The notes under the pieces are model-generated. The model saw nothing but the letters and a program-made list of their open reading frames with translations, had not been told where the DNA came from and did not search any database. From a bacterium (GTDB taxonomy: Bacteria; Gemmatimonadota; Gemmatimonadetes; Longimicrobiales; RSA9): 64,000 nucleotides of DNA. The position numbers and the translations under genes were made by a program. Positions 30,570 to 39,661 of this stretch are shown in pieces (within the stretch, counting starts at the first letter, position 1; the number at the start of each line of letters is the position of its first letter). The stretch lies in NCBI GenBank assembly GCA_003242735.2, contig QGVH02000009.1, positions 7,660 through 71,659 of the forward strand, read 5' to 3'.

Positions 30570-31868
30570 TCACCCGTGCGCCGGGGCGAGCAACGCGCGC
30601 AGATACCCGGTCCACCGGGCGGCCCGCGCAGAGCTGTCGGCGGGCTGGTCACCCCCGGATTGCGGCTCGCGGTTGCGCTGGACCGCCTCCCACGCCTCTT
30701 CGCTCTCCCACGGCCGGTGAGCGCCGTGCCCCGACCACCTCGGCGCCATGCCCGCGGTCCAGAGGAGGCGGCGCAAGCGCACGGACGGACACGGCCCGGG
30801 ATTGCGCGGGTACAGCGAGGCGATGTAATGCCGCTCGAGGAGGTCCAGCACCAAACGCGGCCGCGGGGGACGGAGCCGCTCGAGGACAGGCGGGGGCACG
30901 GTCACGTGAGCGAGTGACCGCGCGAGACGGAACGTCCAGTAGCACGCGGTCGTTGCACGCGCGGCCCGAGCGGCGTCCACGACTGCATCCCAGTCCACCG
31001 GGGTGCGTCCGAGGATCTGGTGCAGGTCACGGAACGTGCGCCACGACGCATGCGCGAGGCCGTGCGACCACGCGAAGTGCACGGCCAGGTGCAGCACCTG
31101 ATGTTCAGTGGCAGGGACGAGCGCACGCCGGCCGTGGATCTCTATGGCACGCGCGCTACGCCAGATCGTCTCCGCAGGAAGATGGATGGCGTCCGTCTGA
31201 CTGAGCGCCGCGTGCAGCTCCAGCGCGATGCCCGTCCCCAGCGGGTCGAGTAGAGGCGGCAGGTGGTGGTGCGCCTCGTAGATCTCGGATGGGTACGCTT
31301 CGGCGTCGTGTACCCAGCCGGCGGCGCGCAGCGCCTCCCACGCGGCGGCGACGTGCTCCTGCCTGACCAGCAGATCCACGTCGTACATCGGCCGCGCTGC
31401 GAAGGAGCCGTACGCCGTCGCCGCGACACCCGCCCCCTTCAGCAAGACGACGTCGATGCCTCGTTCCGCGAGCGCGTCCAGCGCGCCGATGAGGAGCTGC
31501 TGGAGCCGGAGCATGCGGAACTGCGTGGCGCGCACGAGCGCGGCGAGGCGAGTGCGCGAGGTCGGCGGGATGCTGTCTTCGGGCGCGCGGTCCGTGAGCC
31601 CTGCGAGGGCACCAACGGCTTTCTCTTGCCACGCGAGTGTGAGCAACGCGTCCCAATCCAGCGACGGATCCTGCAGCGCCGCTGCGGCTCCCGCCGGATC
31701 GAGATCGGGCTGGATTGCGGCGAAGAGGACGCGCGCCTCGGGGCAGAGGAGCCGGCGGCTCACGCTGTTCAGCGCGTCAGCCACGGGACGACGGCAGGAC
31801 CGACAGGGACGGGAGAGGCAGCATGGCAGCAATCGGTCCCCGGGGGGCCGCGGCCCCCCGGGACGCAT
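30570..31868 (-). CDS. Nucleotidyltransferase-fold protein (NTP_transf_5-like), lasso-cluster tailoring candidate
   Basis: The 432-aa product contains ERGIDVVLLKGAGVAATAYGSFAARPMYDVDLLV and LHLAVHFAWSH, typical of the uncharacterised nucleotidyltransferase family seen in RiPP/lasso clusters. Its start lies 5 nt after the stop of precursor A1. Confidence 0.8.
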   Translation of the reverse strand: MRPGGPRPPGDRLLPCCLSRPCRSCRRPVADALNSVSRRLLCPEARVLFAAIQPDLDPAGAAAALQDPSLDWDALLTLAWQEKAVGALAGLTDRAPEDSIPPTSRTRLAALVRATQFRMLRLQQLLIGALDALAERGIDVVLLKGAGVAATAYGSFAARPMYDVDLLVRQEHVAAAWEALRAAGWVHDAEAYPSEIYEAHHHLPPLLDPLGTGIALELHAALSQTDAIHLPAETIWRSARAIEIHGRRALVPATEHQVLHLAVHFAWSHGLAHASWRTFRDLHQILGRTPVDWDAVVDAARAARATTACYWTFRLARSLAHVTVPPPVLERLRPPRPRLVLDLLERHYIASLYPRNPGPCPSVRLRRLLWTAGMAPRWSGHGAHRPWESEEAWEAVQRNREPQSGGDQPADSSARAARWTGYLRALLAPAHG

Positions 31869-31873
31869 CAGCG

Positions 31874-32014
31874 TTACGAGCGATCCTTGTCCTTGCAGAA
31901 GAGCTCGTCGCCGTCGCCGATGCCGAAGATGCCGCCGTCGCAGTCCGGGTTCGTCCCGAGCCGTGTCAGTTCACGCACCGACCCGAACCGCTCGAGCTTG
32001 GGCTTGATGTACAT
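31874..32014 (-). CDS. Lasso peptide precursor A1 (46 aa): MYIKPKLERFGSVRELTRLGTNPDCDGGIFGIGDGDELFCKDKDRS
   Basis: These are the last 46 codons of the spurious track ORF 31874..33268. ATG 32014 is preceded by AGGAGGGAGT. The leader KPxLE...ELT-x resembles known lasso leaders. It lies immediately downstream of the cyclase and is a paralog of A2. Confidence 0.8.
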   Translation of the reverse strand: MYIKPKLERFGSVRELTRLGTNPDCDGGIFGIGDGDELFCKDKDRS

Positions 32015-32034
32015 ACTCCCTCCTTTGGGATGAT

Positions 32035-32082
32035 GGGTTGCGGGCGACTGGCCCGCGCAGCCTGTCGCACCCGCGACAGGAT
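32035..32082 (-). repeat. Copy 1 of the 48-nt double-hairpin element upstream of a precursor gene
   Basis: It matches 38487-38534 at 47 of 48 positions. The minus-strand RNA reads AUCCUGUCGCGGGUGCGACAGGCUGCGCGGGCCAGUCGCCCGCAACCC. Hairpin 1 is CCUGUCGC/GCGACAGG and hairpin 2 is GCGGGC/GCCCGC. Confidence 0.75.
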
Positions 32083-32085
32083 CGG

Positions 32086-34053
32086 TCAGATCGCAACGGT
32101 TGCCGCCGCAACGACCGTAGCGTTCGTCGGTTTCTCCAGACTTCCGGACGCGTTGCCTCGCCGGGCACGCAGCCAGAGCTCCGTCTGGAGCGTGTAGTAG
32201 AGGCCGACCCGGGTGGCGGCGTCTCGGCGGCGCGGGTACTCCGCGCACGCGCGGCGCAGCTCTTCGGCTCGAACGATGCCCAGCTCCTCCAGCACGAGCG
32301 GCTCGCGCATCGTCCGTTCGAGCAGACCGGGGAACACCTCCACCATCCAGCGGTGCGAGTAACCACCGGTGATCCCGGTCCGGTACGGCCGCGGGGCGAG
32401 AACCTCCTCCGGCAGCAGACCGTGCATGGCCCGCCGGAGCAGACGCTTGGTCTCCTTGCCGGACGATCGCTCCCACCAGGGGCGCGACACGGCGAATTCG
32501 ATAACACGCCGGTCTGACAACGGCGAGCGGACCTCGACGCCCTCGCGCAGCGCGAACCCCGTGATCAGGGCGAACGCGCGGGAGACGAAGAGCGAGGTGA
32601 AATGCCAGTCGATCTCCCGGCCCGCGTGCGTGGCGGGGATCTCCCGCGTGAGGAACTCGCGGTCGCGCGCCTCCAGCTCGTGGCGCGCGACGAACTCCGG
32701 GTTCAGCCAGGACGGGATCGGGCGCTCGAGATAATGCTTCAGCCGCCGTCCGCCCCGGAGCCACGCGGCGAGGCGGAGCGCTGGCTCCGGCAGGTTGGGC
32801 TGGATCACCCACTTGAAAAACGGCCGGAACCCGCCGCGCGGCCGGGCCCGCCACTCGCGCGCCACCGTCCACCAGCGCCCTGCCCGGAACAGGTCGGCCA
32901 GGAAGACGTCCGAGTTCTGGAAGAGCTGGTCGCCGCCGTTGCCGTCCATGGCGACGCGTGCGCCCAGGGCCCGGGCCCCGGCTGCGAGCGCGCCGTTCCA
33001 CCGCTCGTAGAGGTGCGCGTACGGCTCGTCCCGGGCCGCCGCCCGCTCCTCCTCGCGCTCCAAGAACGGGATGTCCGCGATGTCGATCCAGTGGACGGCC
33101 CCCCCCCACCGGTCCGCGATCGCCTGGATCCACTCGTCCTCGCGCCCCGGGTCGCCTTCGGGGTAGCTGATCGAGACCGGCCGCACGGCCGCGTCCAGGC
33201 CGTCCCGGCGGATCACGTGGCACGCCGCGCCGAACACCGCGGTCGAATCCCACCCGCCGCTCATCCACACGGCGTTCACCGCGCCCGGCTGCAGCCGCTC
33301 CCGCACCGCCGTCGCCAGCAGCTCACGCAGGTGCACGGCCGCATCCTCGTGCGAGAGCCGGCTGGGCTCAGCGTTCACCGGCACCTCCCAGTACCGGACC
33401 GGGCCGTGGAGACGGCCGTCCGACCAGCTCATGCGGTGCGCGTTGGGGAGCACGCGCACCGCCGTGTAGCAGGTCTCCGGGCCCGCGGAGAAGTGCAGGC
33501 CGGCGATCGTCGCCCCGAGGATCGGCAGGTTCAGGTCGTCCGGGCAGCGCGGGTGCGCGACGACCCCGCCGATCGTGGACGCCACGACCAGCTCGCCGCC
33601 GAGCTCCGCGTAGTGGAGCGGACGTTTCCCGCCGAGATCCCGCGCGCACAGGACCCGCCGCCTCGCCCGGTCCCAGAGGATGAAGGCGAAGTCACCCTCG
33701 ATGTGCGACACGCAGTCGTCGCCCCAGGCGCGATAAGCGGCGAGGATCAGGTGCGCCGGCGAGTCGCCGGCCGGGCTCACGCCACGCTCGCGCAACGCCC
33801 GCCGCAGGTCTTCGCGGTAATAGACGGACGCGTCCGCCGCGACCACCACAGCGCCGTCCTCGACGACCAGCACCGGGCCGCTGAACGTCGGGTCGAGCTC
33901 CCATTCGTGGCGCGCGACCGCGAGCACGGCATCGCCGCCCCGCCAGATCTGCAGACGATCCCCGCCCCGGGCCGACATGCGGCCCAGCATCGCGCGGATC
34001 TGCGCATCCGTCACAGACGGCGCGTCACCGAACACCCCGACAATTGCGCTCAC
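32086..34053 (-). CDS. Lasso peptide cyclase (asparagine synthetase B-like, McjC-type)
   Basis: The 655-aa product starts at GTG. It has an N-terminal Ntn-like domain without the catalytic Cys (MSAIVGVFG), the PP-loop WMSGGWDSTAVF and a C-terminal Asn-synthase fold. A precursor gene lies 71 nt downstream. Confidence 0.92.
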   Translation of the reverse strand: MSAIVGVFGDAPSVTDAQIRAMLGRMSARGGDRLQIWRGGDAVLAVARHEWELDPTFSGPVLVVEDGAVVVAADASVYYREDLRRALRERGVSPAGDSPAHLILAAYRAWGDDCVSHIEGDFAFILWDRARRRVLCARDLGGKRPLHYAELGGELVVASTIGGVVAHPRCPDDLNLPILGATIAGLHFSAGPETCYTAVRVLPNAHRMSWSDGRLHGPVRYWEVPVNAEPSRLSHEDAAVHLRELLATAVRERLQPGAVNAVWMSGGWDSTAVFGAACHVIRRDGLDAAVRPVSISYPEGDPGREDEWIQAIADRWGGAVHWIDIADIPFLEREEERAAARDEPYAHLYERWNGALAAGARALGARVAMDGNGGDQLFQNSDVFLADLFRAGRWWTVAREWRARPRGGFRPFFKWVIQPNLPEPALRLAAWLRGGRRLKHYLERPIPSWLNPEFVARHELEARDREFLTREIPATHAGREIDWHFTSLFVSRAFALITGFALREGVEVRSPLSDRRVIEFAVSRPWWERSSGKETKRLLRRAMHGLLPEEVLAPRPYRTGITGGYSHRWMVEVFPGLLERTMREPLVLEELGIVRAEELRRACAEYPRRRDAATRVGLYYTLQTELWLRARRGNASGSLEKPTNATVVAAATVAI

Positions 34054-34266
34054 AGCACGATACCCGAATTGCGCGGTCCCAACGCGCTACCACGAAGTGG
34101 AGTTGGCCGACGCTCGCGGCGACGGATCACATTCGATACCCCGGGCCGATGTGGCCGCGCGCGCCAGCGGCCGGTTTGCAAGGGGAGTGCCATTCGGGGT
34201 GGCCACTCATCTCGTAATATGACAACATGTTACGGTTTTTTGGCGCGACGTGTCGGCGGTTCGGCC

Positions 34267-34315
34267 TGTTGCAGGCGATCATCATCTTGGCGCCCAGAAA
34301 AGTCACCATTTTGTC
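34267..34315 (-). repeat. Copy 1 of a conserved upstream non-coding block (candidate promoter/operator of the cyclase unit)
   Basis: It matches 39057-39106 at 38 of 50 positions with one 1-nt gap. Shared blocks are TGTTGCAGGCGA, CATCA, TGGCGCC, GTCACC and TTTTGTC. It lies in the 299-nt gap between the permease stop and the cyclase start. Confidence 0.5.
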
Positions 34316-34352
34316 GCAGTGAGATCGCCGCACGGCAAGCGGGTCCGTCCCA

Positions 34353-35153
34353 TCAATAATGTGAGAGAGACCCGACGCGCCGCGCGTACGCGAGCGCGAC
34401 CCGCAACGCGATCATCCCGACGGACAGCAAGCCGACCACGAAAAGGGCGAGGATCGCGAGGTCCGGCAGCACCGCCCGGAGCGGCTCACCTTCCAGCAGG
34501 GTCCGGCGCAGCGCCCGAAGGCCGTAGGTCAGGGGAATCATCCCGGAGACAGACTCGAGCCAGGACGGAATGACGTGCGTCGGGTAGTAGACGCCTCCGA
34601 GGAGCGCGGAGAGGGTCGTGACGGCCTGCGGCAGTGGGCCCGTCGTGCGGAAAGCGATGACCAGCGCCGCCGCCATCATCCCGAACGGAACGTAGGCGAG
34701 GACAATGAGCAGCACGATGAGGAGGGCGAGCCCGACCCGCGACCAGAGGATCGTCGCGCCCAAGAGCCATGCGCCGACGAGCATGGTGGCGGCGCGCAAA
34801 CCCGCCCATAGCAGGCTGAAGCCGATCAGCCCGGCCAGGACCTCGGACAGGCGGGTTCGGGTGCCGAGCAGGGCCTCGAGCACGCCGGTATTGATGCCGG
34901 AGCCGATCTCGCCCGCGAGCGCGTTGACGCTCACGGGGAGGAGCAGGAACGTCATCGTGCCGACGGCGAGGAATGCGAAGTATTGATCGCCCTCCGCAGC
35001 GATCTTGTCGGCCATGATTGGCTGGAGCGCGTTGGCGACGAAGAACAGCGGCACGACGGTCGCGAGCAACGAGAGGGTGGAGAAGACCATGCGGACGCGA
35101 TAGCTCCGTGCCGCGAGCCAGCGCGCGCGGATCAATGCGACGGCGCCTCGCAT
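34353..35153 (-). CDS. ABC-2 type transporter permease (lasso export/immunity candidate)
   Basis: ATG 35153 overlaps the ATPase stop (ATGA). The 266-aa product has about six TM segments. The upstream 54 Arg-rich codons of the track ORF were discarded. Confidence 0.85.
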   Translation of the reverse strand: MRGAVALIRARWLAARSYRVRMVFSTLSLLATVVPLFFVANALQPIMADKIAAEGDQYFAFLAVGTMTFLLLPVSVNALAGEIGSGINTGVLEALLGTRTRLSEVLAGLIGFSLLWAGLRAATMLVGAWLLGATILWSRVGLALLIVLLIVLAYVPFGMMAAALVIAFRTTGPLPQAVTTLSALLGGVYYPTHVIPSWLESVSGMIPLTYGLRALRRTLLEGEPLRAVLPDLAILALFVVGLLSVGMIALRVALAYARRVGSLSHY

Positions 35154-36235
35154 CAGTCCTCCGCCTTCAGGCGGACCATGCGCTCGAGCAGGTCCGCGAG
35201 GGTGACCGGTCTGTGCTCGACCCCGCAGACGGCGACTCCGTGCCGGACCAGATGGCCCACCATGTCGGCGACGCCGTCGGGGCCGCCGGGAATGGGAGCC
35301 TCGACGACGGCCCAACGGGCGGTGCCGCGACCGTCGTCGAGCGTCGCGCCAATGTGTCCGGCGCGGGCGAGTGCGCGGAGCGCGTCGTCGACGTGGTCGG
35401 CGCGGACCGTCAAGCGGTACATGTCGTCCCGGACCTCGCCCATCAGTTCGTCGAGCCGGCCGACGGCGAGCAACCGCCCGCGATCGAGGACCGCGACGCG
35501 CTCACAGAGCTCGAACGCCTCCTCCGCATTGTGGGTCGCCAGGAGGATCGTGCACTGCTGGCGGCCGACGATCTCGTCGCGGAGGAAACGGCGGAACTGG
35601 CGCGCGGCGACGGGGTCGAGGCTCCGGGTCGGCTCGTCGAGCAGGAGCACCTTCGGCCGCGCCAGCAGCGCTCGCGCGATGAGGAGCCGCTGCTTCATGC
35701 CGGAGGAGAAGGTGCCGACCAACTTGCTGCCGGTGTGCTGGAGCCCGACCGCCTCGAGCAGTTCCCCGACGCGCGTCGACACGTCCCGGCGAGGAACGCG
35801 GTAGAGGGCCGCGAAGAGCTCGAGGTTCTCGCGCGCCGTGAGTCGCCAATCGAGGCTGCGCTCGTCCGGCACCACGAGCGCGAGCGCGCTCCGCACGGCG
35901 TGCGGCTCGCGAAGGATGTCGTGGCCTGCGATGCGCGCCGTGCCGGCGTCGGGGAGCAGCAGTGTGCTCAGCATCCGGAATAGGGTGGTCTTGCCTGCGC
36001 CGTTCGCGCCGAGCAGGCCGAAGAACTCGTTGCGGCGGATGTCGAAGCTGACGCCGTCGACGGCGGTGATGCGCCGCGCCCGGCGCCAGGGAGCGCGCAG
36101 GATCTCACCCCAGGTGCGCCGCTCGGGAAACGCCTTGGTGAGCCCCTGGACGGAGACGATGGGCTCGCCGTCGGCCGGGCGGGCGGCGGACGCACTGGCG
36201 TGTTGCGACGATGCAGTGAGCGGCGCGGTGGTCAT
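35153..36235 (-). CDS. ABC transporter ATP-binding protein (lasso export/immunity candidate)
   Basis: ATG 36235 overlaps the kinase stop (ATGA). It has Walker A GANGAGKTT, signature FSSGMKQR and Walker B LLLDEPTRSLD. It is part of the 751-aa track ORF 35153..37408, whose 5' part is spurious. Confidence 0.9.
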   Translation of the reverse strand: MTTAPLTASSQHASASAARPADGEPIVSVQGLTKAFPERRTWGEILRAPWRRARRITAVDGVSFDIRRNEFFGLLGANGAGKTTLFRMLSTLLLPDAGTARIAGHDILREPHAVRSALALVVPDERSLDWRLTARENLELFAALYRVPRRDVSTRVGELLEAVGLQHTGSKLVGTFSSGMKQRLLIARALLARPKVLLLDEPTRSLDPVAARQFRRFLRDEIVGRQQCTILLATHNAEEAFELCERVAVLDRGRLLAVGRLDELMGEVRDDMYRLTVRADHVDDALRALARAGHIGATLDDGRGTARWAVVEAPIPGGPDGVADMVGHLVRHGVAVCGVEHRPVTLADLLERMVRLKAED

Positions 36236-37203
36236 GGCGTCGTGCCGGCGAGAGACTGCGCGTGCCAGTCGCGGATGGTGGCGACGGCCTCCTCGAGCCG
36301 ATCGAAGTCGCGCACGATTTCCAGCCGGTAGACGGGGACGCAGGCTGCGAGCGCCGTCGCGTGCCGGAACAGGTTCGGCGCCTCGGGGCCCGTGAGCAGC
36401 GGCGCCAGCTTGGCGTGGCCGAGGATCACCAGGGCCGCCTCCATGCCGGAGAGCCGCGTGCGGCGGACGGCTGCGCCGTCGGGTGCCTCCCGGACCGGGG
36501 CGAGCAGGTACAGCGCCGCGAGCGGGTGCGTGCAGTGAGAAACGCGCTCCTCGGGCAGGGCGCGGAACACGGTCTTCGGCCCCACGGCAGCGGGCGCCGC
36601 CTGGCCGATGCCGACGACCCTGGCCGAGTCGGCCCAGAGACGGGCGGCGTGGAGGCCGGGGCCTGCGAGCGGCGGCGAGCCGGCAAGGACCGGCATGGTG
36701 TCGTCGGTGAGGAGCTTCCCGCCGGACCTCACCAGCGCGAGCGCCAACGTTGACTTCCCGTGCCGCTTCGGCGCGACGAACCCGACGGCCTGCCCGTCCA
36801 GCACCACCGCGCTCCCATGGAGACAGACGGTGCCGGCGGCGTACAGCGCGGTGGCGAGCACGCGGCTGGTGATGTCGGCCCGCGCGTCGGCGGCCGAGAC
36901 GTCCTCTGCATGGGTCCACGTGATGGTCCGGCCATCTGCGGCGATGTCGAAGCAGCCGGTATCGTCGAAGACCAGGCGGAACCCGTGGCTCGTGCGGTAA
37001 AGACGGGTCTCGACGCCCGCCGTCACCGTGTCGCTCCCGAGCGGGACGCATTCCGCCTCCGGCGGCTCGCCGACCCGCGAGCGGAGGACCCACGTCACGT
37101 CCTCCGCGGGATCCGCCGCCTCGAGCTCCGGGATCGCCAGATCGCTCTCGAGGACGCCGCCGAAGAGCCGATAGCGATGCCTGATGGAGGGCTCGTTCGT
37201 CAT
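36232..37203 (-). CDS. HPr kinase/phosphorylase-related kinase (lasso precursor Ser kinase candidate)
   Basis: The 323-aa product has P-loop-like VAPKRHGKSTLALAL and LHGSAVVLDGQAVGF, typical of HprK-related kinases in kinase-type lasso clusters. Its start codon directly abuts the B2 stop codon (37203/37204, no overlap). Confidence 0.8.
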   Translation of the reverse strand: MTNEPSIRHRYRLFGGVLESDLAIPELEAADPAEDVTWVLRSRVGEPPEAECVPLGSDTVTAGVETRLYRTSHGFRLVFDDTGCFDIAADGRTITWTHAEDVSAADARADITSRVLATALYAAGTVCLHGSAVVLDGQAVGFVAPKRHGKSTLALALVRSGGKLLTDDTMPVLAGSPPLAGPGLHAARLWADSARVVGIGQAAPAAVGPKTVFRALPEERVSHCTHPLAALYLLAPVREAPDGAAVRRTRLSGMEAALVILGHAKLAPLLTGPEAPNLFRHATALAACVPVYRLEIVRDFDRLEEAVATIRDWHAQSLAGTTP

Positions 37204-37662
37204 TCAGAACTCGACCAGCCGGAGATCCGGCAACCGGGTGAACGTCTGCACGTGCTGCCGCGAGTCGCCGATCACGACACCGTCCAGCTCGATCCACGCG
37301 TGCGCCTCGAACTCGCCGTTGCGCCTGCGCACGCCGACGTTGATCCTGCTCGCCGTGATCCCCCGCCGTCGCAGCATCCGCTGGATCGCCATCGATCGGA
37401 CCAGGCATTGCGGCCGGAAGACACCGTACCTCGCTGCCCGTGTCACCGCCCAGGCGACCGCCTCCGCAATGCGTCGATCCTCACGGCTCGGTGCTCGTCG
37501 CTCGGGCTCGGGCTCTGCCCTCCCGAGGAGCTCACCGACGGGGCGCCGCCAGCGTTCGTACTGGCACGCGAGCAGCACCACCTGGGCCTCTGCGAGCAAC
37601 CGCACCTCTCGCAGAGTGAGCCCGCGGAGTCGGCGGAGCCACACGGCCGCGGTCCGGGTCAT
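37204..37662 (-). CDS. Lasso peptide B2 leader peptidase (transglutaminase-like cysteine protease)
   Basis: The 152-aa product has a Cys...His...Asp context (RPQCLVRSMAIQRML, EFEAHAWIELDGVVIGD), typical of the McjB C-terminal domain family. Confidence 0.85.
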   Translation of the reverse strand: MTRTAAVWLRRLRGLTLREVRLLAEAQVVLLACQYERWRRPVGELLGRAEPEPERRAPSREDRRIAEAVAWAVTRAARYGVFRPQCLVRSMAIQRMLRRRGITASRINVGVRRRNGEFEAHAWIELDGVVIGDSRQHVQTFTRLPDLRLVEF

Positions 37663-37666
37663 GGGG

Positions 37667-37942
37667 TCACCGTTCGTCGGCCGGGATCACCAGGCCGTGA
37701 CGCGCCAGGTCATCGAGGAGCTCGACCACGTCGCTCCGGAGTTGCTCGGCGGGCACATCCGGATAGCGCCGCCCGAGCTCCGCGCACACCTGGTCGAGGT
37801 CCTGGCACGTGGGGGGCAGGAGTTGCCACACCTCGACACCGACGGGGTTGAGACCGAAGTAGACTTCCTGTTCCATGTGCAGGAGGATCGCGCCCTCCGG
37901 CACGGGCTGGAACAGCACGGCAGGGTGAGGTTTCGGCAGCAT
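37667..37942 (-). CDS. Lasso peptide B1 protein (PqqD-like RiPP recognition element)
   Basis: I chose the start at ATG 37942. The product begins MLPKPHPAVLFQPVPEGAILLHMEQEVYFGLNPVGVEVWQLL, a typical PqqD-family pattern. The stop lies 4 nt before the B2 start. No obvious SD is present, so the start is uncertain. Confidence 0.78.
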   Translation of the reverse strand: MLPKPHPAVLFQPVPEGAILLHMEQEVYFGLNPVGVEVWQLLPPTCQDLDQVCAELGRRYPDVPAEQLRSDVVELLDDLARHGLVIPADER

Positions 37943-38282
37943 TCGTTCAGAATCGAAACGACACTCTGGTTGAAAGCGGGTCCATGACGCCGGTGGCCGG
38001 ACGGGCAAGTCAGGGGCCGATGGGGGCCATGGCGGCCAAATCGTGAATCCGTAATGACCTGGGAGACGTCCGGCGCCGACACGGGCGCCTCGAAGCTGTT
38101 GCGTTTGCGCAACCCTGTCAGGGAGGCGGCGCGGCGGCGGTGCGACACTGCCGGCCGGGAGGGCGGCGAGCAGGCCACGGCCTCGAGGCAGCGGAGCCCG
38201 CGCCTCCCTCGTCCACCGCGTCGACCGCGGGGGACGAGGGGAGGGGGCGGAGCGTCCGGTCAGGATCGGCGCAGGGAAGGGC

Positions 38283-38304
38283 CCGGGGGGCCACGGCCCC
38301 CCGG
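38283..38304 (-). terminator. GC hairpin 10 nt after the A2 stop (attenuator or mRNA-stabiliser candidate)
   Basis: The minus-strand RNA is CCGGGGGG-CCGUGG-CCCCCCGG, an 8-bp all-GC stem with a 6-nt loop and no U tract. A gap of about 340 nt follows before B1. Confidence 0.4.
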
Positions 38305-38314
38305 CGGGTTGGTG

Positions 38315-38464
38315 CTACGAGCGGTTTCCGGTGTTGGTGCACCCTACCCAATGGCCGCGGGCGGCGTCGACGCCGAAGATGCCGCCGTCGCAATCGGTGC
38401 TGAGACCGTATTGGGTCAGCTCGCGCACCGAGCCGAACCGCTCCAGTCTCGGTTTGACATACAT
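38315..38464 (-). CDS. Lasso peptide precursor A2 (49 aa): MYVKPRLERFGSVRELTQYGLSTDCDGGIFGVDAARGHWVGCTNTGNRS
   Basis: These are the last 49 codons of the spurious track ORF 38315..38983. ATG 38464 is preceded by GAGAGGAG. It matches A1 at 24 of the first 31 residues, with many synonymous codon differences. Confidence 0.8.
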   Translation of the reverse strand: MYVKPRLERFGSVRELTQYGLSTDCDGGIFGVDAARGHWVGCTNTGNRS

Positions 38465-38486
38465 TCGATCACTCCTCTCGGGAGAC

Positions 38487-38534
38487 GGGTTGCGGGCGAC
38501 TGGCCCGCGCAGCCTGTCGCACCCACGACAGGAT
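38487..38534 (-). repeat. Copy 2 of the 48-nt double-hairpin element upstream of a precursor gene
   Basis: It matches 32035-32082 at 47 of 48 positions. The single difference (plus-strand A at 38524 versus G at 32072) turns a C-G pair of hairpin 1 into a U-G wobble on the minus-strand RNA only. Confidence 0.75.
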
Positions 38535-39056
38535 AGCACAGATGGCACCGGTAGCGCCACCCTTCGATTCGAACGGCACCTCGCCCCTCCCGCGCGGGCG
38601 AGCCGCGCGTCGGCATCGCGAGCATGCCCCGGGAACGCCTCGACCGCCCCGTGTCGGGCGGCGGGGCGCTCCCCCGAACAGGACGAGCCGGACCACCGCC
38701 CCGGAAGACGGCCGGAAAGCGCTGTGCGGTTCCGCCTCCTCCGATCAACGGGGCGCCGTGCCCGGCGGACAGCGCCCCAGCTGCGCGGGTGTGGAAGTCG
38801 GCCGCTGCGTGTGCCCAACCGAAACCGCCGACGACGGCGCGCACCGGCGCTTTCCCGCACGGATCCGGTCTGAGGGTACCACCACAGCGGGCGCTGGCCG
38901 CCGCACCCGGCGGCGCAGGAGAGACGGCCACAGCGGCTGCCGCAGCCGTTCGCTGCGCGGGGGGCCCGCAAACACGATACCAAACAGGGGGATGCCGTCT
39001 ATCTCGTGTGGCTACGAGAGTTTCGAGACGGCACGCCGTGCGGTGCGGCGCAGTCT

Positions 39057-39106
39057 TGTTGCAGGCGAGCATCAGACCTGGCGCCTGCATTGGTCACCGT
39101 TTTGTC
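39057..39106 (-). repeat. Copy 2 of the conserved upstream non-coding block
   Basis: See 34267-34315. A further shared ATCTCGT word lies 56-58 nt away in both copies (34209-34215 and 39001-39007). Confidence 0.5.
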
Positions 39107-39202
39107 CCACGGCGGCGGGCCACCGGCTCGTCGTACGATACGAGAAGGCGCCGACGAACCATGCATGGCGAAGCGTGACGCGGCCGCGCGCCGCGCGCCT
39201 GC

Positions 39203-39661
39203 TCACCCCTCCTGCTCCGCCGCCGTCGCGATCTTCGGCTCGACGGCGACGTCAATGGCGATCCCCTGGCGTACGCTCTGGGTGACGGTGCAGAAGTCCT
39301 CGAAGAGGCCGATGCAGCGCGTGAGGCGCGCGGCGTCGGCCTCGTCCAGCTCCGGGGCGAGCCGGACCGCGATGCGGCTGACGCGGAGGCGGCCCGCGTC
39401 GTTGCGTTCGATGGTGCCGCTCACCTCGGTCTCCATGCCCGTCACGGGCACATGCGCCTTCTGGAGGCAGAAGAGCAGACTCGCGGCGAGGCAGCTCCCC
39501 ACCGCGGCGCCGAGCAGCGCGGTCGGGTTCGGCCCCGCGCCCCCGCCCAGCGGCGGCGGCTCGTCGACGGTCAGTTCTCCGGTGGTCCCGGAATCGAAGC
39601 GGACCGCGAACTCGTAGCCGTCGCGCCGCGTCAGCGTGACTCTGAAGGTGTTGTCTTTCAT
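39203..39661 (-). CDS. OsmC/Ohr family peroxiredoxin-like protein
   Basis: The start is ATG 39661 after GGGGAG. The sequence GGGAGPNPTALLGAAVGSCLAASLLFCLQKAHV...CIGLFEDFCTVTQSV has the typical OsmC pattern with conserved Cys. Confidence 0.85.
   Translation of the reverse strand: MKDNTFRVTLTRRDGYEFAVRFDSGTTGELTVDEPPPLGGGAGPNPTALLGAAVGSCLAASLLFCLQKAHVPVTGMETEVSGTIERNDAGRLRVSRIAVRLAPELDEADAARLTRCIGLFEDFCTVTQSVRQGIAIDVAVEPKIATAAEQEG

Follow-up and report, generated by a model that had tools for sequence, protein, structure and literature searches.

The window, as we call the whole 64,000-nucleotide stretch of DNA analysed here, contains a lasso-peptide cluster of a Longimicrobiales-like Gemmatimonadota genome, with two precursor genes, each preceded by a copy of the same 48-nt sequence, and this arrangement raises the question of what the repeated element is and what it may do for the genes that follow it. 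Both small ORFs (A1 and A2) match the lasso leader model NF033521 (lasso_leader_L3), and the main genes of the cluster are located as follows:

38315..38464, minus strand: lasso precursor A2 (49 aa; NF033521, E 8.9e-6)
37667-38008, minus strand: B1, a PqqD/RRE protein, downstream of A2
37204-37662, minus strand: B2, a transglutaminase-like protease, downstream of A2 (B1 and B2 assigned on the basis of PF05402, PF13471 and NF033537)
36235-37203, minus strand: kinase-like protein of 323 aa, weakly HprK-related (TIGR04352, E 1e-5, below the cut-off; PDB 1ko7, E 0.43)
32086..34053, minus strand: lasso cyclase C, asparagine-synthase-like (PF00733, NF033535), immediately 5' of element copy 1
31874..32014, minus strand: lasso precursor A1 (46 aa, MYIKPKLERFGSVRELTRLGTNPDCDGGIFGIGDGDELFCKDKDRS; NF033521, E 4e-5)
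30570-31868, minus strand: NTP_transf_5 protein (NTase)

Along the minus strand, approximately 670 nt of non-coding DNA and element copy 2 are followed by A2, a 3' hairpin, B1, B2, the kinase-like gene, genes of an ABC ATPase and an ABC permease, the cyclase gene, element copy 1, A1, another 3' hairpin and the NTP_transf_5 gene. The cyclase relatives identified in species-representative genomes are all encoded by MAGs; the closest of those with a phylum label belong to Gemmatimonadota, the nearest coming from a Longimicrobiales MAG (89% identity). Throughout the family, the precursors almost always end with Ser (...DRS, ...NRS, ...GS or ...TS). The combination of Ser-ending precursors with weakly HprK-related and NTP_transf_5 proteins resembles the clusters of C-terminally phosphorylated lasso peptides, e.g., paeninodin.

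The earlier note had described the element as conserved at 47 of 48 positions upstream of both precursors. A pattern search of the 64-kb window bore this out, giving two matches only, at 32035-32082 (0 mismatches) and 38487-38534 (1 mismatch), with no third match at up to three mismatches and none expected by chance (0 in 100 shuffles). The two copies, and the spacers between them and the start codons, are composed as follows:

32035..32082, minus strand: element copy 1 (72.8 bits with covariance model R1, introduced below), with hairpin 1 (32061-32080), a CUGC linker (32057-32060), hairpin 2 (32040-32056) and an AACCC tail (32035-32039)
32015..32034, minus strand: spacer and ribosome-binding site of A1, with GGAGGG at 32018-32023, which can pair with an upstream UCCC
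38487..38534, minus strand: element copy 2 (also matched by R1), with hairpin 1 (38513-38532) and hairpin 2 (38492-38508)
38465..38486, minus strand: spacer and ribosome-binding site of A2, with GGAG at 38472-38475, predicted to pair with CUCC at 38481-38484

The sense (minus) strand reads AUCCUGUCGC-GGGU-GCGACAGG-CUGC-GCGGGC-CAGUC-GCCCGC-AACCC and, as had been proposed, both copies fold into two consecutive hairpins, the first of 8 bp with a 4-nt loop and the second of 6 bp with a 5-nt loop (folding energies of -27.0 and -24.9 kcal/mol; z-scores of -2.65 and -2.37, respectively). Since the plus strand folds as well or better (-29.2 kcal/mol), folding energy alone cannot name the strand. The sole substitution replaces the loop-closing C-G pair of hairpin 1 with U.G on the sense strand of copy 2, just as the earlier note had read it; taken alone, this single G-to-A change between the window copies is thin evidence, and it is the related loci that supply support. 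Copy 1 starts 4 nt past the cyclase stop codon, and copy 2 forms the 3' end of the ~670-nt region at the head of the A2-B1-B2 operon, a region that is non-coding, with no codon periodicity across 38470-39100. The distance from the end of the element to the precursor ATG, previously put at about 20 nt, is 20 nt for copy 1 (ATG at 32014) and 22 nt for copy 2 (ATG at 38464).

Just 5' of hairpin 1, a further G.U-rich hairpin of 10 pairs may form in both copies (32085-32107 and 38540-38562, minus strand). Its sequence differs between the copies and it is limited to the closest relatives; the copy 1 version overlaps the last codons of the cyclase gene, and the bases of the copy 2 version resemble a weak sigma-54 motif. 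A pseudoknot between the GGGU loop of hairpin 1 and the ACCC of the tail (32069-32072 with 32035-32038; 38521-38524 with 38487-38490) was considered and not adopted: the pairing is kept in loci L001, L034 and L043 and lost in L002, L036, L042 and L046, i.e., it is confined to the closest relatives.

The coding leader that follows the element is less conserved than the element itself, in agreement with the earlier description. Over the first 18 codons, A1 and A2 share 41 of 54 nucleotides (76%), eight codons differ synonymously and 10 of the 18 third positions are changed (~56% divergence). Because the leader diverges so much more, one difference in 48 nt lies far under the neutral expectation (the probability of at most one difference is 3e-5 at the overall divergence of the leader). 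Upstream of the element, the similarity between the two copies persists weakly for ~30 nt (17/30). An island of this kind had been thought to be either selected or gene-converted. In orthologues from other genomes, the flanking codons drift and the element is retained with hardly a change, which argues for selection and not only for intragenomic conversion; the conservation of the element is far above that of synonymous sites.

For the wider comparison, 113 related loci were collected, 33 via the cyclase and 80 via precursor alignment in metagenomes; all of them are MAGs or metagenome contigs, and their sequences are phylogenetically related, so that the counts given here are not independent. 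The two-hairpin architecture (hairpin 2 ending at -19 to -31 relative to the start codon, with hairpin 1 located 2-10 nt upstream of hairpin 2) was found in 49 of 79 distinct upstream regions, compared with 1.1 +/- 1.1 (maximum 5) in 200 dinucleotide shuffles. Wherever the element or a diverged version of it is present, hairpin 2 ends 19-31 nt from the start codon, mostly 23-28 nt. By sequence, the element is recognisable in a clade of approximately 13 distinct loci, and the core motif of hairpin 2 occurs 21 times in 1.0 Mb of related loci, each time on the sense strand and at a distance of 23-28 nt from the precursor start that follows. With R1, a covariance model derived from 14 sequences, 21 matches exceeded 60 bits, all of them directly upstream of precursors, and elsewhere there was noise only. 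Model R2, built from the wider family only, gave 37 matches at E <= 0.014, again all directly upstream of precursor genes and on the sense strand; it recovers the non-seed members L003, L051 and L068, and it matches the elements of the window clade weakly but exactly in place. The element is absent from the precursor-first clusters of a sister clade.

In the window clade, hairpin 1 keeps its CCUG/CAGG base, and its top and loop change compensatorily: the stem is CCUGUCGC/GCGACAGG in the window, CCUGCCGC/GCGGCAGG in L042, CCUGUCC/GGACAGG in L046 and CCUGCC/GGCAGG, with a 7-nt loop, in L036. Distant precursors are preceded by two hairpins of other sequence in the same place, typically ACGGCC-N5-GGCCGU and CCGGGC-AAGCG-GCCCGG. 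Over all variants, hairpin 1 has a loop of 3-8 nt and a stem of 5-10 bp, and the loop of hairpin 2 consists of 5 nt in nearly all of them, most often CAGUY or AAGCG, closed by GGGC/GCCC. Judged from these comparisons, a two-hairpin leader is common to the family, and the 48-mer of the window is its version in one clade.

Covariation was assessed on MAFFT alignments built without structural information. In alignment A8, 91.5% of the cells are paired, compared with 22-48% in slid controls; 7 of the 13 pairs are changed on both sides, and none of 500 shuffles reached the observed values. Alignment A4 gave a similar picture (90.5% paired; 6 pairs changed on both sides), and pair 48-64 of hairpin 2 in alignment A7 occurs as CG in 18 sequences, GC in 7 and GU in 7. 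MAFFT brings the window clade and the wider family into register at hairpin 2, and RNAalifold recovers both hairpins unaided. The earlier note, which held that the structure is kept as sense-strand RNA, had named covariation in homologous clusters and RNAalifold folding as ways of checking this, and both bear it out: the element is present in related clusters and its stems covary. The strand was addressed with a hairpin search in which G.T and A.C mismatches were scored symmetrically. On the sense strand, mismatches of hairpin 2 comprise seven G.U and one A.C; those of hairpin 1 comprise six G.U, distributed over six lineages, and six A.C, all from one lineage. Together with the variable loop length, the unlikeness of the two palindromes and the replacement of stems between subfamilies, this mismatch bias favours a structure of the sense-strand RNA. 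Compensatory base pairs, and a consistent position and strand relative to the precursor family, are what is found in structured cis-acting RNAs.

The gene arrangement seen most frequently in the clusters is B1-B2-C-[element]-A-kinase-like-ABC-ABC-NTase. Further settings of the element are (i) the head of an operon (window A2 and L042), (ii) tandem arrays, and (iii) orphan precursor genes. Tandem arrays of two or three precursor genes were observed in L036-L038 (three units with a period of ~520 nt), L046, L066, L069-L075 and L101, and in L036-L038 and L046 each unit of the array carries both a 5' element and a 3' hairpin. Orphan precursor-like genes, in loci that lack lasso biosynthetic genes, were observed in L048, L052-L055, L059, L096, L098, L099 and L104-L112. 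Orphan genes carrying the element have no lasso enzyme within 5 kb; in L112, for example, the neighbours are peptidases, DcuC, a lipid kinase and OmpA. These orphan units end in U-rich terminators, and the loci look like monocistronic units of promoter, two-hairpin leader, ORF and terminator. The distance from the element to the upstream stop codon ranges from 4 to ~110 nt, some copies having no upstream gene at all, while the distance to the start codon is fixed. By its position, the element is thus tied to the precursor gene and not to the neighbouring gene, and in the loci searched its association is shown to be exclusive to predicted precursor genes.

In two subfamilies, promoter-like motifs were found upstream of the hairpins. 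In the orphan group, a conserved 15-nt block, TGGCATTATCCTCGC, shows the -24/-12 pattern typical of sigma-54 promoters and precedes hairpin 1 by 16-19 nt, at about position -98 relative to the start codon in L048, L099, L104, L106, L108, L110 and L112; the stretch between this block and hairpin 1 varies, and the hairpins and the Shine-Dalgarno sequence are invariant. The L056 group has a conserved TGG(A/T)AC-N5-CTGCA in the interval from the cyclase stop codon to hairpin 1, ~95 nt before the hairpin and at about position -165 relative to the start codon (L056, L057, L060 and L064). Because these sigma-54-like motifs lie upstream of hairpin 1, we infer that in both subfamilies the hairpins are transcribed as part of the 5' UTR; the predicted start site would leave an estimated ~3-7 unpaired nucleotides before hairpin 1 in the L048 group and ~85 nt in the L056 group. 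The motifs also suggest enhancer-dependent transcription of lasso precursors. No activator gene was found within 5 kb in L112.

For the copies of the window clade no convincing promoter was identified, and a sigma-70 consensus scan of 31600-39400 returned no sites. TATCCT or GATCCT directly before hairpin 1, noticed by eye as a potential sigma-70 site, was dropped, since transcription would then start inside the stem. Near window copy 2, TGGCGCTACCGGTGCC (38544-38559) shows the GG-N10-GC spacing expected of a sigma-54 site but matches the consensus at only 8 of 12 positions; L042 lacks it, the copy 1 equivalent is 1 nt too long, and we regard it as unsupported as a promoter in the window, even though sigma-54 motifs of other subfamilies are convincing. 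A tRNA-like sequence in the spacers of the tandem arrays, GGTTCGAGCCC, is not recognised as a tRNA by ARAGORN.

Compared with known families and classes, the element is new as an RNA motif but familiar in kind. A search of the whole window against Rfam 15 gave no match at gathering score and none at E <= 1 in 31700-38900, and in twelve related loci there were only two chance-level matches, both to eukaryotic families. Full-text literature searches did not turn up any account of a 5' element belonging to lasso precursors or of a link between such genes and sigma-54. Three other classes were considered and rejected. The element is not an intrinsic (Rho-independent) terminator, a class that the earlier note had likewise set aside for want of a U tract: the tails AACCCAUCAUCC and AACCCGUCUCCC contain none, a terminator scan was empty at both elements, and it is the distance to the upstream stop codon that varies, that to the start codon being mostly 23-28 nt. 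It is not a dispersed REP/MITE-like repeat, being present in only two copies in the 64-kb window and, in ~1 Mb of related loci, always upstream of a precursor. Nor is it a palindromic operator of fixed spacing, the loop of hairpin 1 ranging from 3 to 8 nt and the half-sites being replaced between subfamilies with their complementarity kept.

The 5' element is not the only conserved structure of these genes. Directly 3' of the stop codon, a GC hairpin is conserved at both A1 and A2:

31838..31863, minus strand: 3' GC hairpin after A1 (11-bp stem, 4-nt loop, no U tract)
38283..38304, minus strand: 3' GC hairpin after A2 (9-bp stem, 4-nt loop, no U tract)

Because this hairpin and the weak 5' similarity are conserved as well, the duplicated unit, as far as it can be read from the two copies, is not an isolated island; it is a whole cassette comprising the weakly similar 5' stretch, the element, the ribosome-binding site, the gene and the 3' hairpin. 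A strong hairpin follows every precursor located inside a cluster, with further cluster genes beyond it. The two structures differ in the way they vary. When five orthologues of copy 1 are compared, two positions are variable in the 44 nt that span hairpins 1 and 2, and both belong to loop 2, whereas the 4-nt loop of the 3' hairpin shows six variants among seven sequences (the same five, window A2 and L042). Since the 3' loop varies freely and the loops and linker of the 5' element are near-invariant, comparison indicates that the 3' hairpin behaves as a purely structural element, and that the unpaired bases of the 5' element are under sequence constraint.

Among possible functions, those listed in the earlier note (RNA stability or processing, translational control and protein binding) are still the ones to be considered. 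We consider that the structured 5' leader and the 3' hairpin could well form an mRNA stability and expression cassette for the lasso precursor, a reading to which we give about an even chance of being right. It draws on the position of the element, the cassette-like behaviour of the unit and two precedents (the nifH1 stem-loops and the lasso inverted repeat described below). Both hairpins would be transcribed on the sense strand, with the second ending ~25 nt before the start codon, just 5' of the ribosome-binding site, and the leader and the 3' GC hairpin would bracket the small precursor gene to make a self-contained expression cassette. Most likely, the 5' hairpins would shield the precursor message, be it a primary transcript or a segment cut from the cluster transcript, from 5'-end-dependent decay, and the 3' hairpin would stop 3' exonucleases and reduce read-through. 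The precursor mRNA would then outlast the enzyme mRNAs, providing the substrate peptide in excess. Against a 5'-end stabiliser, the sigma-54-like motif of the L056 group lies ~95 nt upstream, and the hairpin there would not be 5'-terminal unless the transcript is processed.

Several known systems show parts of this arrangement. The 5' UTR of E. coli ompA contains two stem-loops and acts as a 5' stabiliser. The likeness lies in two stable stem-loops in the leader before the ribosome-binding site of a highly expressed small gene, with a longer mRNA life to be expected; there is no sequence relationship, and the conservation of loops and linker observed here would be needless for a pure stabiliser. 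In the Rhodobacter puf operon, the pufBA segment is differentially stable and flanking hairpins set the protein stoichiometry; hairpins again surround small, abundantly needed genes inside an operon, but genes, organisms and sequences are unrelated and the comparison is an analogy only. In Anabaena (A. variabilis), nifH1, vnfH and fdxH1 are preceded by stem-loops at processing sites, and the nifH1 mRNA is stabilised (PMC4284476). There, too, a conserved stem-loop lies just 5' of an abundantly expressed structural gene within a long cluster, and the half-life exceeds that of the neighbours; however, phylum and sequence are different, and a single hairpin with experimentally mapped processing stands against two hairpins in tandem whose distance is fixed. 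Lasso clusters are known to carry an inverted repeat behind the A gene, which is considered to control transcription into the genes that follow (PMC5974421). This motif concerns the same gene family and has the same presumed purpose, namely the precursor:enzyme ratio, and it corresponds to the 3' hairpin described here; it lies 3' of the precursor, whereas the present element lies 5'.

A pure stabiliser should tolerate changes in its loops, and because the loops and the linker are near-invariant, sequence-specific recognition beyond protection is suggested. A second reading, possible but clearly less probable than the stability cassette, is therefore that the leader is a translational operator or protein-binding RNA, in which the hairpins (mainly hairpin 2, conserved in sequence, and the linker) bind a trans-acting factor, e.g., a regulatory RNA-binding protein; our estimate also covers the variant in which the hairpins organise a ribosome standby or entry site. 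In both variants, they would switch or tune precursor translation jointly with a small hairpin covering the Shine-Dalgarno sequence or start codon. The reading is kept alive mainly by the constraint on the unpaired bases, i.e., the GGGU loop, the CUGC linker and the CAGUC loop, which are near-invariant in orthologues where the loop of the 3' hairpin is randomised; these conserved bases hint at a sequence-specific partner. The constant 5-nt loop of hairpin 2, with CAGUY and AAGCG as its commonest versions, and the fixed position of its end (-19 to -31), close 5' of the ribosome-binding region, point in the same direction. In most variants, a third hairpin is predicted around the Shine-Dalgarno sequence or start codon; it is common though not uniform, and it points to translational effects as well. 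The Shine-Dalgarno sequence of A2 has a predicted unpaired probability of 0.16, but over the family some subfamilies are predicted to bury this sequence and others to expose it in a loop, with a mean unpaired probability of 0.48 versus 0.46 in shuffles, so that uniform sequestration by the third hairpin is not supported. In addition, no candidate RNA-binding protein was found in the clusters, and the loop sequences differ among subfamilies. A translational component of the leader is possible, and this reading is compatible with the stability model and not exclusive of it.

A bolder form of the same idea, which we put forward tentatively and regard as rather improbable, is that the leader is a sequence-specific RNA operator whose pentaloop hairpin and linker are read by a dedicated factor that switches precursor translation or decay. 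Such a factor could be either a protein linked to the cluster or a global RNA-binding regulator that answers to the sigma-54 signal. If this were true, the leader would represent a new riboregulatory class dedicated to RiPP precursor supply and spread as a mobile promoter-leader-ORF-terminator cassette.

Two further explanations are both very unlikely. One is processive antitermination, in which the nascent hairpins would modify RNA polymerase and permit read-through into the kinase-like, ABC and NTase genes. Antitermination dependent on leader RNA is known for antibiotic gene clusters (LoaP) and for the two-hairpin put RNAs of phage HK022, and the likeness is evident in the presence of two hairpins, or a leader hairpin, near an operon promoter, sometimes that of a natural-product operon. 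Here, the two hairpins lie close downstream of putative promoters, and the strong hairpin after each in-cluster precursor, with cluster genes behind it, would offer a site to read through. What makes antitermination unlikely is that orphan units keep the element with nothing downstream to read into and end in U-rich terminators; moreover, such a system gives no reason to expect a constant distance to the start codon, the element has no Rfam match, and no NusG paralogue was seen in the loci examined.

The other is a DNA-level operator, with palindromes that bind a dimeric transcription factor repressing or activating precursor transcription. Both hairpins are near-perfect palindromes as DNA, folding is just as good on the plus strand, hairpin 2 is strongly conserved in sequence, and palindrome-preserving changes could also come from co-evolution with a dimeric factor. 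Such an operator would, however, have half-sites of varying spacing (hairpin 1 loops of 3-8 nt, stems of 5-10 bp), two palindromes unlike each other, and half-sites fully changed between subfamilies with complementarity kept; where its symmetry is broken, the sense strand mostly has G.U, and it would lie downstream of the promoter-like motifs.

Least probable of all is a terminator or attenuator of the cyclase gene passively carried along in a duplication of the C-A junction, which would suit the location of the element directly after the cyclase in most clusters, the traces of the cyclase 3' end retained upstream of hairpin 1 in copy 2 and the U-less terminators proposed for GC-rich bacteria, but which is contradicted by the missing U tract, by elements that have no preceding gene (window copy 2, L042, orphans and the inner units of tandem arrays), by a distance that varies to the upstream stop codon and is fixed to the start codon, by the position downstream of conserved promoter-like motifs, and by the 47/48 identity of copy 2 against ~56% third-position divergence.

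The stability and expression cassette, the reading we prefer, bears on a general feature of RiPP pathways, which need much more substrate peptide than enzyme, and how this is achieved is known for few systems; for lasso peptides, only a hairpin 3' of the precursor gene had been noted before. The element adds an RNA structure supported by covariation 5' of the precursor, in dozens of clusters of uncultured Gemmatimonadota and at orphan genes. It offers (i) a concrete target for tests of stability and translational control, (ii) a marker of genuine precursor genes, including orphan and tandem ones missed by gene callers, and (iii) a part to keep or re-engineer when clusters are expressed heterologously.

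Some minor observations were made on the remaining sequence of the cluster. In the core-peptide region, a run of 22 nt is identical in A1 and A2 (31924-31945 and 38374-38395; TGCGACGGCGGCATCTTCGGC plus the next base, encoding CDGGIFG), with neighbouring codons that differ, and a DCDGG(I/V)(F/W/H)G motif is common to the closest precursors. The ~300-nt gap between the ABC permease and cyclase genes (34054-34352) contains, on the opposite strand, an AT-rich hairpin (34212-34235, plus strand) followed by a T run, and might act as an internal regulatory region or else terminate antisense transcription. Finally, the L042 locus shows a mosaic relationship to window region 36235-38534, with 99% identity in the kinase-like protein, 87% in B2 and 74% in B1 and a different precursor core, which suggests recombination inside the cluster.
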